A program made the position numbers and the translations under genes. This document shows, piece after piece, positions 30,165-44,464 of a DNA stretch of 44,464 bases. The stretch is from a virus (lineage: Duplodnaviria > Heunggongvirae > Uroviricota > Caudoviricetes). The stretch is taken from the IMG/VR virus record IMGVR_UViG_2571042862_000006, positions 1 to 44,464 of that record, one strand, 5' to 3'. The number at the start of each line of letters is the position of its first letter. Position 1 is the stretch's first letter. The notes beneath the pieces were generated by a model. The model did not search any database. It was not told the DNA's origin and saw only the letters and a list, made by a program, of their open reading frames with translations.

Positions 30165-30812
30165 ATGAAAACGATGCATGAAATTATCGGGGAAAGGATA
30201 AAGTCCCTTAGAGAAGCTAAAGGACTTAGCCAGGCTCAATTGGCCAAGCTTTGCGGCTGGGCTGCGCCTTCACGCCTGGGGAACTACGAGTTAGGAACAA
30301 GAAAGGTTAGCGCGGATGACGCGCTGGTTCTTGGGGCGGCACTCGGCGTATCTCCGGCAAAAATAATGTTTGGCGAGGATTCAGACGCCGTATTTCGCCA
30401 ATATGAATACCCGTTATTTTCTTCAGTGCAGGCCGGGCCATTTTCGGAGGTGGGAAGCTACACAGCCAGCGATGCAAAGGCATGGGTCCCAACGACCACA
30501 AAAGCCAGCGAAAAAGCTTTCTGGCTTGAGGTGAAGGGGCATTCAATGACGGCGCCTCAGGGGGTTCGTCCAAGTTTTCCGGAAGGCATGCTGATACTCG
30601 TTGATCCGGCTGAGCCGGTAGAGTCTGGGGATTTCTGCGTGGCTTCTGCAAATGGTGATTCAGAGGCAACGTTCAAGAAGTATGAGAAGGATGCAGGGGT
30701 TAGTTACCTGGTACCTTTAAACCCGGCATATAGAACCCTGGATTGCGACCATAGCTGCCGCATCATAGGCAAGGTAGTTAAGGCGCAGTGGCCTGAAGAG
30801 ACGTTTGGCTGA
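30165..30812 (+). CDS. cI: CI-type repressor (HTH plus S24 LexA-like autopeptidase domain)
   Basis: C-terminal domain resembles the P22 C2 repressor ([13 protein letters not shown]...EGMLILVDP...ATFKKY); N-terminal HTH; true start may be the second ATG at 30174. Confidence 0.85.
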
Positions 30813-39881: not shown

Positions 39882-39897
39882 TCTGCAGGGGACACCA
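39882..39897. other. attR core: 16-bp copy of the 3' end of tRNA-Arg argW (CTGCAGGGGACACCAT)
   Basis: Exact match to the remembered argW 3' end / KplE1 att core, 70 bp after the excisionase and 165 bp before the second integrase. Confidence 0.6.
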
Positions 39898-40061: not shown

Positions 40062-41348
40062 ATGTCCAGAAATACCCTCAACAAATTAACAGACCGTCAG
40101 TGCAAAGCAGCTAAGCCACGAGACAAAACTTATAAATTGTCTGATGGTGGTGGTCTTTATCTTGAAGTATCCCAGACCGGGTCGAAGTATTGGCGAATGA
40201 AGTATCGCCGCCCATCAGATAAGAAAGAAGACAGACTTGCTTTTGGTGTATATCCAACCATTAGCTTACAAGACGCCAGAGAAAAACGAGACAACGCCAA
40301 AAAGTTGTTAGTCAAGGGGATAGATCCCAAAGCAGAGCAAAGAGCAGCAAAAGCAGAAGAAAAAGGCGCATTCACTTTTGAGACAATAGGACGTCAATGG
40401 GTTGAAAGCCACCAGATGTGGAACGAAGACCACCGAAAACGCGTACTTAGAAGCCTTGAAATGTATATTTTCCCTCACATTGGCACTTCGGATATTCGCA
40501 AACTGGAGGCGATGACAATTTTACCTTTGTTTAAGAAGGTAGATGACGCCGGGAAACACGATACAGCCAACCGACTTAAACAACGAGTTAAGGACATCAT
40601 ACATAGCGCCCGTCTGAGCGGCATTAAGACAGAAATCATCACGAATGATCTCGATGTCCGGTTAATGCAATATGAAACTAAGCATCATGCCGCACTACAT
40701 CCCAGAGATTTACCAGACTTTTTCACTCGATTGGGCAGCTTTAAAGGTAATCCTCTTACCCGCCTTGCCATTGAGCTAACCATGTTGACATTTGTTCGTT
40801 CAAGCGAGTTAAGGTTTGCCCGTTGGAAAGAGTTTGACCTTGATCGGGCTGAGTGGATTATCCCTAAAAAAAGAGAGCCTATCGATGGTGTGAGGTTTTC
40901 CACCCGTGGCACAAAAACGGGAAAAGACGAACATATCGTGCTTCTTAGCCGTCAGGCTGTTTCTATTGTAAAGCAGTTGAGAGAACTAAGCGGAAGCTAC
41001 GATGTTGTGTTTCCGAATGAAAGAAACACCAAAGGCGTGATGAGTGAAAACACGGTAAACAAGGCATTACGCTTAATGGGCTATAACACGCAAGAGGACG
41101 TAACTGGACATGGATTCCGTGCCACAGCCTGTAGTTCCCTGATGGAGTCCGGTTTGTGGCAGGAGGACGCAGTAGAGCGCCAGATGAGCCACAAAGAATA
41201 TAAAGACGTTAAAAGAGCCTACAAGCACAAGGCTGATTACTTAGAAGAGCGCAAACTAATGCTTCAATGGTGGGCAGATTATCTGGACGCCAATCGAGAA
41301 ATACATATAAGCCCTTACGAGTTCGGAAGGAGAACACGCCGTGACTAA
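40062..41348 (+). CDS. Tyrosine integrase, P4-like family (second integrase)
   Basis: 428 aa; N-terminal arm-binding region (LTDRQCKAAKPRDKTYKLSDGGGLYLEV) and catalytic region (HGFRATACS...MLQWWADYLD); clearly distinct from the integrase at 1..1158. Confidence 0.9.
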   Translation: MSRNTLNKLTDRQCKAAKPRDKTYKLSDGGGLYLEVSQTGSKYWRMKYRRPSDKKEDRLAFGVYPTISLQDAREKRDNAKKLLVKGIDPKAEQRAAKAEEKGAFTFETIGRQWVESHQMWNEDHRKRVLRSLEMYIFPHIGTSDIRKLEAMTILPLFKKVDDAGKHDTANRLKQRVKDIIHSARLSGIKTEIITNDLDVRLMQYETKHHAALHPRDLPDFFTRLGSFKGNPLTRLAIELTMLTFVRSSELRFARWKEFDLDRAEWIIPKKREPIDGVRFSTRGTKTGKDEHIVLLSRQAVSIVKQLRELSGSYDVVFPNERNTKGVMSENTVNKALRLMGYNTQEDVTGHGFRATACSSLMESGLWQEDAVERQMSHKEYKDVKRAYKHKADYLEERKLMLQWWADYLDANREIHISPYEFGRRTRRD

Positions 41349-41349
41349 G

Positions 41350-42096
41350 ATGACAGGACTAGATGCGTTTTATAACGAGTCAGAAGATAAAATCTGGTTT
41401 GGTAATCTGATCAGCGAACTGGCAAGACTAAACAATGAAAATGAAAGAATGATCGCTGCCGCTATCTTAAGTAACTACAGATTGAGCAAAGCTAAACCAG
41501 ATACTTTAGGGGGGCTGGGCTTTTATCAGTTCGATTGGGTATCAGGTTTTACAACTAATGACGACTTTGAAAAGCAGTGTGTGGAGTTTTTAGGTCTTCT
41601 GGCTATGGGGCATGAATACAGGGAGAGCCCGATACCGGGGGAAGAAGGGACTTTCAACGTTAGGAAAGGGGAAGACTTTTTATATCACGATGATGAGGAT
41701 GATTGGTATGGGTCTTACGATTCGTTTTATTTCAAGCGCTCCGAGGTTGTGAACTTCTTCCCAGAACTGGATATGAATGTTCCAGATAACGAACCAGAAA
41801 TTGGAGCACTGTCAAAAAAAGTAGAAAGAGAACAAAACTGGAGAGGAAAAGATACGGCTTTAAAGATGATCGCCGGAATGGCGATTGCCTTATTTGAATC
41901 AAGCAAAGATTTCCATAGTGGAGGAAACCTTAGTATCAATAGGGTTAGTGCCCAAGTAATAGAAAACAACATAATATTCGGGAACGATGAAGACAGCGAT
42001 ACCCACCCAGATACATTTCGGAGATTGCTAACGAACGCTTTGGATAAGTACGCCCCCAAATTTAAGAAAAAAGCAACCAAAAAGCGTCCAAAATAA
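41350..42096 (+). CDS. Hypothetical acidic protein in AT-rich DNA
   Basis: About 249-aa ORF beginning immediately after the integrase stop; no family recognised. Confidence 0.5.
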   Translation: MTGLDAFYNESEDKIWFGNLISELARLNNENERMIAAAILSNYRLSKAKPDTLGGLGFYQFDWVSGFTTNDDFEKQCVEFLGLLAMGHEYRESPIPGEEGTFNVRKGEDFLYHDDEDDWYGSYDSFYFKRSEVVNFFPELDMNVPDNEPEIGALSKKVEREQNWRGKDTALKMIAGMAIALFESSKDFHSGGNLSINRVSAQVIENNIIFGNDEDSDTHPDTFRRLLTNALDKYAPKFKKKATKKRPK

Positions 42097-42252: not shown

Positions 42253-42444
42253 ATGAAAAAGTCGCTGATTCGGCTATCTGAGGTTTTGAAACGCACTGGC
42301 TATAGCAAGGCGTGGGTATATGCTCTGATGAGCCGAGGACAATTCCCCCAATCAGTCAAGATTGGTGCTCGCGCAATAGCTTTTATTGAAAGCGAGATCG
42401 ATGACTGGATCGATCAACGTATAGCCGAATCGCGTAGTAACTAA
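42253..42444 (+). CDS. alpA: AlpA-family transcriptional regulator
   Basis: 63-aa HTH protein (LIRLSEVLKRTGYSKAWVYALMSRGQFPQSVKIGARAIAFIESEIDDWI) matching the AlpA consensus. Confidence 0.75.
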   Translation: MKKSLIRLSEVLKRTGYSKAWVYALMSRGQFPQSVKIGARAIAFIESEIDDWIDQRIAESRSN

Positions 42445-42492: not shown

Positions 42493-42684
42493 ATGCAGTT
42501 GAAACCTACCAATCAAAAGCTGAACGTAACCCATGTTGATTTTGAAACCTTCGCGGCACTGATTAGATCAGAGCCACAAAAGGTGAGCACCAGCACCTGG
42601 GTTTATGATGTGAAATCCACCAGCGGTGGAAAAGCTATCGGCATTGCCTCTGGCGATGATTACTTAGTAATAGATCTGATTTAA
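42493..42684 (+). CDS. Hypothetical protein, 63 aa
   Basis: ORF only. Confidence 0.35.
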   Translation: MQLKPTNQKLNVTHVDFETFAALIRSEPQKVSTSTWVYDVKSTSGGKAIGIASGDDYLVIDLI

Positions 42685-42765: not shown

Positions 42766-42960
42766 ATGATTAATTACCTGACCGCTAAAGACGCAGCAGA
42801 ATATCTTGGCGTCTGTCTGTCACGCTTCTATCAGTTAAAGCGATATATCCGAAGCTTTCCTCCCTATATAAATCAGACCATCAATGGACGCAAGCGCCGG
42901 GTGTGGCTTGCCTCCAGCCTTGATCAATTTGCCGACAGATTTCTGGGGGGACGAAAATGA
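42766..42960 (+). CDS. Small HTH DNA-binding protein
   Basis: LTAKDAAEYLGVCLSRFYQLKR resembles an HTH_17/excisionase-type helix-turn-helix. Confidence 0.5.
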   Translation: MINYLTAKDAAEYLGVCLSRFYQLKRYIRSFPPYINQTINGRKRRVWLASSLDQFADRFLGGRK

Positions 42961-43343
42961 GCACTCTTACACGCTCTCAGGTCGCCGCGAATATACGCGA
43001 TATCCTACTAAGTGGCAGGAAGCTTACCCCAAAAGAGTTTGACGACATATTAAGGAAAGCCGGAAATCACGAACGTAGTCGCGTTTTAACGCTGTTACGC
43101 AACGATTGGGGAATTCCTGTTGAGCAGTTTAAAACAGAGGCGTATCACGTCACAGAACGCAATTTAGAAGCATACCACAGCGATAAAGACGAAACATTGA
43201 AGATCTGGAGGACGAACGCCAGATATGTAAAGACATTGCGTAAGGTAAACATAACGTTGTCGTTGTTGCGTGGGCTGGTGGGTAAAGTGCCTGAAGACAC
43301 GCTTAGAACTGTTTACAAGGGTATTGAAACCAAATACCTGTGA
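42957..43343 (+). CDS. Hypothetical protein, 128 aa
   Basis: ORF with ATGA overlap to the upstream gene. Confidence 0.45.
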   Translation: MSTLTRSQVAANIRDILLSGRKLTPKEFDDILRKAGNHERSRVLTLLRNDWGIPVEQFKTEAYHVTERNLEAYHSDKDETLKIWRTNARYVKTLRKVNITLSLLRGLVGKVPEDTLRTVYKGIETKYL

Positions 43344-43411
43344 TTGACAAAGCAGAAAGCCGACTTTGCGAGAGTCGGCTTTGAAGCAATTGAAATATAT
43401 GAACTTTACAC

Positions 43412-44464
43412 ATGGAATTATACGATAAAGACGCGAGTCTATCCACAAAATCACAAGCCGTAATCAATCACATCAATGGTCGCACATTAGCTTATGTGAG
43501 ATCAGTTACGCACAAACGTAATGAATTAAAGGCGGAGAATAAACGCCAATCATCAAAGGCTAACCACTGCATACCACCAGCTTGGACAAAGAAGAAATGG
43601 CGTACAATGAGGCGAGCTTTGTTTACTCTGGATGTCGAATCAACTAGTGGTATCCCCTACTCCTTTACCTTCAGACCCGTTAAGGGAACAACGCCAGAGA
43701 AATTCAACAAAGCGTTAAAGGCACTTACCAGATGGTTGACTTCGAAAGGCAATCAGTGGGTTTACGTCATGGAGTGGGCTCAACACCAGTCAGAGCCGCA
43801 TGTACACGCAATAATTATGGTGAACGAAAGAAGCATTAATGGGCAAGCAGGCAAAATTGTCAGCAAATGGGTAACACTGGCAAACAATGCAATCCCATCA
43901 AATGTTCCTCCCCAGTGGGATCTAGATTTGAAAGGTCAGCAATATTCAGAGCCTACAAGGTGTATAGGTAAACAGATTGATTACATGGCAAAACCCGAAA
44001 CTAAGTTAAATGACTTTAATAGAGAGGCGAGCAAGAGCCTATATGATTGGTCAGATGCCAACGTTTGGGGTTATTCGAATGGCTGGGCGCGGCATGAGAT
44101 AAAAAAAGAAACACTTTCTATCACTGGCTTTCATGCTGTAAGACGCATACTAAAAGCCATTCAGGCATCAAGGAAAGACAACTACAAAGTTAAGCGACAG
44201 ATACAGCGTACATTGAAACGACAAGACATAAATCGCTCACCAATCACCCCGTTCCAAGCACCGTTAATTAGCAAACACGATTGGGATTTATCAGTGATAG
44301 CGGTCACCAAAGAGGCAGAGACAGAGCGCAGGGAGTTACTATCCTCACAGACAATAAACTCGAACAAAGTACAAACCCACCCGCTGTTAAGGATGTTAAG
44401 AAAAGCACGAGTGAGAGCATCCAGAGCCAGAAGAGAAAGCGGAGGTTATGACCATTACTACTAG
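43412..44464 (+). CDS. Candidate rolling-circle replication initiator (HUH endonuclease superfamily)
   Basis: HUH-like motif (EPHVHAIIMV) and downstream Tyr motif (IDYMAKPETK); basic C-terminal tail; ORF ends at the last base of the window. Confidence 0.5.
   Translation: MELYDKDASLSTKSQAVINHINGRTLAYVRSVTHKRNELKAENKRQSSKANHCIPPAWTKKKWRTMRRALFTLDVESTSGIPYSFTFRPVKGTTPEKFNKALKALTRWLTSKGNQWVYVMEWAQHQSEPHVHAIIMVNERSINGQAGKIVSKWVTLANNAIPSNVPPQWDLDLKGQQYSEPTRCIGKQIDYMAKPETKLNDFNREASKSLYDWSDANVWGYSNGWARHEIKKETLSITGFHAVRRILKAIQASRKDNYKVKRQIQRTLKRQDINRSPITPFQAPLISKHDWDLSVIAVTKEAETERRELLSSQTINSNKVQTHPLLRMLRKARVRASRARRESGGYDHYY

Follow-up and report, generated by a model that had tools for sequence, protein, structure and literature searches.

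This analysis concerns a putative rolling-circle replication gene, rep, and the integrative island that carries it. The gene closes the stretch of DNA that was analyzed (the window; 44,464 nucleotides, positions 1 to 44,464 of IMG/VR record IMGVR_UViG_2571042862_000006). The window is 100% identical to Escherichia coli chromosomes at the argW–dsdA hot spot, and from position 1 to about 39,880 it is a prophage, P22-like or lambdoid, with torI at its end. An earlier note, made from the letters alone, had read what follows as a second, P4-like element that replicates by a rolling-circle initiator. This second element is an island of about 10.3 kb, bounded by repeats of the 3' end of the tRNA gene argW and running past the window end. 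Its features are collected in Table 1, those beyond the window being placed by the coordinates of locus L001, which extend past that point.

By chance, no copy of the left repeat would be expected in the window. The second copy lies about 10.3 kb downstream, at L001 30692–30706, inside the 23-mer TTCGATTCCTGCAGGGGACACCA, which the Klebsiella island has at its left end as well. The tRNA 3'-end repeats flank an integrase-bearing segment, as in a tRNA integrative element. From left to right the island carries int, orf251, alpA, orf63, HTH64 (HTH, helix-turn-helix), orf128, rep, an 800-bp non-coding region, cargo genes, a 58-aa open reading frame (ORF) and a serine resolvase. Klebsiella and some E. 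coli strains have it alone next to yfdC–argW, and other strains have several unrelated prophages in front of it; for this reason the tandem of prophage and island reflects a shared attachment (att) site and not a fixed partnership.

Table 1. Features of the argW island, with positions in the window unless another coordinate system is named
Feature	Position	Strand	Description and evidence
Left att core	39883–39897	+	CTGCAGGGGACACCA, 3' end of tRNA-Arg argW; doubles as the right-hand junction of the prophage before it; no other exact copy in the window
int	40062–41348	+	Tyrosine integrase of the P4 type (428 aa); matches phrog_1 and, with E from 7e-29 to 8e-17, Pfam Arm-DNA-bind_3, Phage_int_M and Phage_integrase
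orf251	41341–42096	+	Overlaps int by 8 nt; beside int in all island copies; no family match in Pfam, PHROGs or NCBIfam
alpA	42253–42444	+	AlpA-family regulator/excisionase-like HTH, 63 aa; Pfam Phage_AlpA, E 3.6e-18
orf63	42493–42684	+	Last gene of the integration-side module; kept in all island copies
HTH64	42766–42960	+	DNA-binding protein, first gene of the plasmid-like module; Pfam HTH_17, E 5.6e-5, below the gathering score
orf128	42957–43343	+	Directly upstream of rep; 33–49% identical to the 126/127-aa ORF preceding the Rep homologue in every related plasmid
Hairpin	43356–43382	.	AAAGCCGACT-TTGCGAG-AGTCGGCTTT, between orf128 and rep; perfect 10-bp arms
rep	43412–44464	+	Predicted HUH rolling-circle replication initiator, 350 aa; PF23343, relatives, AlphaFold2, Foldseek, dN/dS
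Motif I	43658–43678	+	Y83-S-F-T-F-R-P89 (FTLTL in relatives); predicted strand 81–87
Motif II (HUH)	43799–43816	+	H130-V-H132-A-I-I (residues 130–135); predicted strand 130–137
Motif III (catalytic tyrosine)	43982–43993	+	Y191-M-A-K194, a single Tyr; end of predicted helix 185–192
Cargo of this strain	L001 25764–29218 (window-equivalent 45263–48717)	minus	330-aa and 821-aa proteins

Rep and its protein family

The rep ORF has 350 codons, opens with ATG and closes with a TAG whose last base is also the last base of the window. The RefSeq/PGAP product is shorter (285 aa, start 43607). We favor the long form because homologues align with it from the first residue, as the Klebsiella protein does, and because a (G/A)WT motif at W58–T59, in the N-terminal part upstream of the PGAP start, is kept in distant relatives. 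Thus, 43412 is probably the better start, and the PGAP start would clip 65 residues (43412–43606). Over these first 65 codons, two E. coli alleles differ by two synonymous changes and one conservative change.

The earlier note had pointed to HVHAII and DYMAK motifs in the order of HUH (His-hydrophobic-His) endonucleases, followed by a basic C terminus, and both observations hold. The HUH motif at residues 130–135 is followed by YMAK at residues 191–194, and residues 236–350 (the last 115, the C-terminal third) contain 25 Lys and Arg against 10 Asp and Glu, with an isoelectric point of 11.1. When the Rep protein is shuffled, the pattern H-U-H-U-U-U with Y-x-x-K 30–120 residues on arises 8 times in 20,000; among the 78 ORFs of the window (stop to stop, at least 100 aa), rep is the only one that has it. 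A third motif, YSFTFRP at residues 83–89, was absent from the earlier note.

The hidden Markov model (HMM) search that the note had called for places Rep in Pfam family PF23343 (REP_ORF2-G2P), with 29.8 bits over residues 85–143 (gathering score 27.8). The only PHROGs match is phrog_30534, of unknown function, covering residues 136–350; NCBIfam gave no meaningful match, and a single-sequence search of the PDB gave none. A word-indexed protein search returned close E. coli copies and Klebsiella homologues about 50% identical, and when 1.84 billion representatives were searched exhaustively with HMMER, only 29 proteins scored E < 1e-3. The family is therefore small.

An alignment of 19 sequences, in which the relatives are 18–25% identical to the query, has eight invariant columns (E121, P129, H130, H132, W153, Q177, Y191 and K194), and T86 and position 87 are nearly invariant. 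By sequence, the conserved columns correspond to the three classical rolling-circle motifs: I, FTLTL (here SFTFRP); II, PHxH; and III, YxxK. PF23343 is matched by all 19 sequences (best E 8e-11), and three of them match phrog_3419, "rolling circle DNA replication initiation"; two match RepSA weakly (E 0.003). When the family profile was compared with the PDB, PHxH was aligned with the HLH of geminivirus Rep and with the PHAH of Helraiser (H593/H595), whose mutation abolishes cleavage (PMC4778049).

A first AlphaFold2 model, from a five-sequence alignment, had a predicted local distance difference test score (pLDDT) of 38.6 and was discarded. The model from the 19 sequences reaches 73.9 overall and about 90 over residues 51–240; it puts the HUH motif on a strand with pLDDT above 90 and Tyr191 at the end of a helix. 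The top Foldseek matches of this model in the PDB are almost all HUH nucleases, the best being NS1 of the parvovirus minute virus of mice (E 3e-4), with SIRV1 ORF119, nanovirus M-Rep, REP-associated tyrosine transposase (RAYT), adeno-associated virus (AAV) Rep, IS200/IS608 TnpA, and circovirus and geminivirus Rep among the others. In BFVD, 89 matches fall below 1e-3 (best 6.8e-8), led by ORF2/G2P-domain and Microvirus replication initiators. Matches in both collections are consistent with an HUH fold for the modeled protein.

Because the HUH motif precedes the tyrosine and the tyrosine is single, Rep is assigned, by sequence and model, to the Rep-class one-tyrosine HUH endonucleases of the PF23343 (ORF2/G2P) family and is predicted to nick DNA. 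The other features of that class are present as well: a profile score above threshold, the HUH motif on a strand, a C-terminal tyrosine motif on a helix, and motif I. The identity proposed in the earlier note is thus supported, in that an HUH-family profile is matched, the invariant motifs fall on the catalytic positions and the predicted fold is HUH-like. At the level of the gene this adds nothing new, as the HUH initiator is already in public annotation: RefSeq names the product "rolling circle replication-associated protein" ("replication protein" in some genomes).

The initiators of single-stranded DNA (ssDNA) phages (inovirus gene II protein, Spiroplasma phage ORF2, Microviridae) share the order FTLTL-like motif, HUH, YxxK with Rep and are its closest predicted-structure matches in BFVD, at only about 10–16% identity in structural alignments. 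Their context differs, however. Rep has no phage morphogenesis genes nearby and resides in an integrase-bearing island and in small plasmids. In phiX174-type gpA, moreover, a pair of tyrosines stands where Rep has one. A tblastn search of a phage collection with Rep gave no match, so an integrated ssDNA phage is unsupported.

Small-plasmid relatives and candidate origins

The strongest indirect evidence on what Rep may do comes from plasmids. A tblastn search of PLSDB found relatives with 24–29% identity on complete circular Klebsiella plasmids of 5.3–6.3 kb (NZ_AP022186.1, NZ_CP073059.1, NZ_CP103581.1, CP124881.1 and NZ_CP141860.1), which MOB-suite types as non-mobilizable and which have no replicon type. 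Their genes, in full, are those for the Rep homologue, for proteins of 68 aa (DNA-binding) and 126 aa, for a resolvase and for an HTH protein, plus one or two small ORFs; all but the recombinase and the HTH protein are annotated as hypothetical. The order of the right half of the island is that of the plasmids: HTH (68 aa), orf126, Rep, a conserved non-coding block, a small reverse ORF and resolvase, with identities of 43–44% for HTH, 39–49% for orf128, 24–29% for Rep and 29–45% for the resolvase. The hairpin before rep and the block after it are shared too. In contrast to the island, the plasmids are autonomous circles without integrase, AlpA or large cargo, and they have an extra 145-aa HTH protein after the resolvase. 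No homologue of orf63 was found in them. The same module occurs on a 4.5-kb metagenomic contig, which is circular, given its 30-nt terminal overlap.

No other recognizable replication gene is present on these plasmids. Since they offer no other candidate initiator, the Rep family most plausibly serves as the replicase of these plasmids. The gene content indicates that the island is a chimera, in which an integration module (int, orf251, alpA and orf63) is joined to a small-plasmid backbone and to cargo.

Across the plasmids and islands, orf128 is better conserved than Rep (33–49% against 24–29%). It has no Pfam match, and a profile search of the PDB gave none; it is likely to be a replication accessory or control protein.

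One of the plasmid records, L014 (NZ_CP141860.1, 12,132 bp), contains two sets of the same six protein genes, 6066 bp apart, and therefore represents two head-to-tail units of a 6.07-kb replicon; this dimer is either an artifact of assembly or a real multimer of a rolling-circle plasmid.

The earlier note had suggested looking for a nick-site hairpin near rep. There is a hairpin, immediately upstream, but it resembles a terminator, and better origin candidates lie downstream, outside the window. The upstream hairpin is found at the same position in all seven replicons compared, with compensatory changes in three of eight pairs; the loop varies in sequence, and a T-run closes the L014 version. 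It is probably a terminator or attenuator, and we rejected it as a nick site on account of the covarying structure, the unconserved loop and the T-run in one version.

Downstream, two regions can be told apart. The first, about 190 bp directly after the rep stop codon (L001 24966–25150), contains GC-rich hairpins. In E. coli the hairpin is GAGCGC-ATC-GCGCTC (L001 25112–25126), preceded by GCGCGGA repeats; the plasmids have GGCGC-TYC-GCGCC and the Klebsiella island GCGCC-GGA-GGCGC. As single-stranded DNA, L001 24966–25300 folds better than shuffled controls (z = -3.5). The backbones of the E. coli island and of the Klebsiella and Citrobacter islands (L002, L028) are 92–97% identical, but 23 nt inside rep (window 43435) nucleotide identity drops to about 66%, stays there until shortly after the stop codon and is then lost; the Rep proteins are 49–50% identical. 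On this pattern, rep and the roughly 190 bp that follow have been swapped between islands as one cassette, which is what a matched pair of Rep and origin would look like.

The second region is a conserved block, TAGAAAAAAA-N-TTCGAAGGGCATCC...CTTATA (L001 25165–25240), followed by TGACGT-type inverted repeats. A blastn search of the downstream non-coding region against all plasmids gave no match at database scale; the block emerged from direct comparison with the related plasmids. It is about 80% identical among replicons whose Reps share about 25%, always lies on the rep strand and, in the plasmids and the E. coli island, is located 190–280 bp after rep. That the block is conserved whatever the Rep type points to a role that depends on the host, for example as a single-strand origin. 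It was also considered as the res site of the resolvase and rejected, as E. coli cargo puts 4.7 kb between block and resolvase, and the DNA directly upstream of the resolvase shows conservation of its own. The origin of Rep is likely to lie just beyond the window end, downstream of rep, and the hairpin region is our candidate for it.

Proposed replication of the excised island and its alternatives

In the 5426 complete E. coli genomes, rep DNA is present in 538, always on the chromosome at argW and never on a plasmid, with a median of one copy and a maximum of two. The full-length gene is found in 221 of the genomes at 97.4–100% identity. Two alleles, which differ by 15 synonymous and 12 non-synonymous changes, give a dN/dS of 0.21, and rep is therefore under purifying selection. 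Outside E. coli, the island backbone occurs in E. albertii, Klebsiella and Citrobacter.

Many other copies are damaged. In about 300 genomes, including O157:H7 and O55:H7, only rep nucleotides 335–1053 are left, joined to a truncated P22-like tail-needle gene by a deletion that removed the left half of the island (L016, E. coli O157:H7 FRIK2455, 5472–6719). The remnant ORF of 215 aa lacks the HUH motif, and on sequence such 5'-truncated copies explain both a 215-aa "replication protein" cluster (P0002) and phrog_30534, neither of which contains that motif. Insertion sequences (IS) also interrupt island copies: an IS3-family element just downstream of rep and IS66 between orf63 and HTH64 (L018 11347–12573; L021, L026 6820–9236). 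Two further protein clusters, P0007 with a Rad52-like N terminus and P0008 with an integrase N terminus, are chimeras that end in the Rep C terminus and point to additional deletions.

We consider it reasonably probable that the HUH Rep, working from its plasmid backbone within the argW island, lets the island replicate by rolling circle once excised. In such a cycle, Int and AlpA would first excise the island as a circle. Rep would then nick one strand at its cognate double-strand origin, most likely in the hairpin region about 190 bp after rep (L001 24966–25150), and remain 5'-linked through a Tyr191 phosphotyrosine while leading-strand rolling-circle synthesis proceeds and host helicase and polymerase displace the strand. 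The conserved block may play a Rep-independent part, such as that of a lagging-strand (single-strand) origin at which host factors convert the displaced strand. The resolvase would resolve multimers. By replicating, the island would avoid loss after excision and may be amplified for transfer.

Integrative elements of other phyla offer a precedent. Elements of the pSAM2 type (actinomycete integrative and conjugative elements, AICEs) and ICEBs1/Tn916 likewise carry both a rolling-circle initiator and an integrase that is site-specific or tRNA-targeting, and in ICEBs1/AICE-type elements replication after excision stabilizes the circle (PMC5714925). They differ from the island in phylum, in initiator (RepSA; Rep_trans NicK) and in having conjugation genes. 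The earlier note's description of the arrangement as unusual therefore stands only in a relative sense: rolling-circle integrative elements are known in other phyla, and the RefSeq label already exists.

Several observations weigh against our reading. The PF23343 score of Rep exceeds its threshold by a mere 2 bits, the profile matches in the PDB are non-significant (E 0.19–0.31), and the Foldseek TM scores are modest at 0.45–0.53, normalized to small targets. The small plasmids are uncharacterized, and the role of Rep as their replicase rests on the lack of alternatives. In the candidate origin regions, no nick site was identified and no match to a known double-strand-origin consensus was established. 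The conserved block could have a regulatory role, and in the Klebsiella island cargo puts 1.8 kb between it and rep. Finally, rep is truncated in many genomes, so its function is dispensable for the host.

What kind of element would the island then be? It shares with P4-like satellites, phage-inducible chromosomal islands (PICIs) and PICMIs (phage-inducible chromosomal minimalist islands) a P4-family integrase, AlpA, a size of about 10 kb, a tRNA-site tandem with prophages and a variable cargo slot able to hold an anti-phage system. In addition, the overlap of orf251 with int resembles the layout of iolg, the integrase-overlapping gene needed for PICMI excision. The satellites, however, carry a primase (P4 alpha, PICI Pri-Rep, PICMI Prim), whereas the replication module of the island is HUH-based and plasmid-derived and has no primase; the PICMI model consists of int, alpA and a DUF3987/DUF5906 primase (PMC10803314), of which the island has the first two and lacks the third. 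No primase or helicase was found among the island genes in Pfam, PHROGs, NCBIfam or RefSeq annotation, and no island gene matches the P4 alpha primase-helicase or the Psu/Delta/Sid module in Pfam, PHROGs or NCBIfam. The same three collections revealed no capsid- or terminase-related genes; together with PADLOC and annotation, they revealed no recognizable conjugation or transfer genes. An Rfam scan across the island gave no match. The earlier note was thus right that a Rep takes the place of a primase, but the P4-like classification must be rejected, as the integrase and AlpA are all that the island shares with P4. It is better described as an argW integrative island with a small-plasmid rolling-circle replicon and a defense-type cargo slot.

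A more ambitious reading makes the island a minimalist phage satellite, or hitcher, in which AlpA would trigger excision, the HUH Rep would amplify the circle to concatemers, prophages sharing argW or infecting phages would package these, and the cargo slot would exchange anti-phage genes. We regard this as speculative and rather doubtful. If it were true, the island would represent the first satellite family of enterobacteria to be driven by an HUH initiator and not by a primase; about 10% of complete E. coli genomes, those of the O157:H7 lineage among them, would then carry it in intact or degraded form.

Four other explanations deserve mention. First, Rep could be mainly a mobilization relaxase, its origin serving as an origin of transfer (oriT) and the island, then an integrative mobilizable element and not a self-replicating one, moving as ssDNA with the help of a co-resident conjugative element. 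The island does move, because its backbone is 92–97% identical across Escherichia, Klebsiella and Citrobacter, yet it has neither transfer nor capsid genes; Rep has a weak match to Pfam Relaxase (MobA/VirD2, PF03432; E 0.0055), and the HUH Reps of pC194, pUB110 and pTA1060 can act as relaxases in ICEBs1-mediated transfer (PMC5714925). The PF03432 match, however, stays below threshold (17.4 bits against a cut-off of 24.6), all the aligned relatives belong to the replication-initiator family PF23343, and the related plasmids are typed as non-mobilizable and have no other replication gene. The order of motifs is also the reverse of that of a conjugative relaxase: HUH relaxases have the tyrosine N-terminal to the histidine motif, whereas in Rep-class HUH enzymes, as in Rep, the HUH motif comes first. 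We therefore think it quite unlikely that mobilization is the main role of Rep, although the two roles are compatible.

Second, the replication module could be the relic of a captured small rolling-circle plasmid, with rep unused in the life cycle of the island. The 5'-truncated copies, which are all that remains in about 300 of the 538 rep-positive complete genomes, would fit this idea, as would the IS interruptions, the P0007/P0008 fusions with their further deletions and the restriction of the island to the chromosome in E. coli. But rep is full-length in 221 genomes with the low dN/dS given above, and the order HTH64, orf128, hairpin, rep, block, resolvase is kept in E. coli, E. albertii, Klebsiella and Citrobacter. 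Further, the exchange of rep and its downstream cassette as a unit implies selection on a matched pair of Rep and origin. An unused relic is, to our minds, distinctly improbable.

The last two explanations are poorly supported. That Rep moves the segment as a rolling-circle transposase of the IS91/ISCR/Helitron kind is suggested by weak Helitron_like_N matches in nine of the 19 relatives (best E 4.6e-5) and by the Helraiser nuclease domain as best PDB profile match (E 0.19), but it is very hard to reconcile with a single catalytic tyrosine where IS91 and Helitrons have two, the lack of a helicase or zinc-finger domain and of a Y2_Tnp match in Pfam, one copy per genome where multiple copies are characteristic, a constant argW location with tRNA-derived repeats and the island's own integrase, and relatives on autonomous small plasmids. 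That the motifs are coincidental and Rep is no HUH enzyme, as the marginal Pfam score, the failed single-sequence PDB search and the poor first model might suggest, is scarcely credible given motifs invariant at 18–25% identity and rarely reproduced by shuffling, the HUH-consistent fold matches and a family profile that puts HxH on the validated Helraiser histidines.

If Rep does drive rolling-circle replication of the excised circle, it would offer a simple experimental handle on a new enterobacterial rolling-circle replicon, explain how a 10-kb island without transfer genes persists after excision and tie that replicon to a defined cargo slot that exchanges known (GapS6) and candidate defense systems. 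The value of the finding lies at the level of the element: a very common argW island of E. coli, Klebsiella and Citrobacter in which a P4-type integration module is fused to the backbone of uncharacterized small plasmids. A literature search on the Rep accession, on rolling-circle argW islands and on HUH-based satellites found no description of the island or of this Rep subfamily.

The cargo slot and a minor observation

The slot between rep and the resolvase varies among island copies. Strain E2 carries GapS6a/GapS6b there, O157:H7 a 470-aa protein, and Klebsiella an HNH_2 protein, a 136-aa protein and a nucleotidyltransferase-like protein. Because GAPS6 protects E. coli against phages (bioRxiv 10.1101/2023.03.28.534373), the slot behaves like a defense hot spot. 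The 821- and 330-aa proteins of the present strain have no Pfam match, and PADLOC found none for the cargo genes, orf251 or orf128. By analogy with the island copies that carry GapS6a/b at that slot, the pair is a candidate uncharacterized defense system.

Within the prophage that precedes the island, ARAGORN calls an 83-nt tRNA-Ala (anticodon CGC) at window 30363–30445, between cII-like and cro-like genes. To judge by its length and position, the call may be spurious or a phage-borne oddity.

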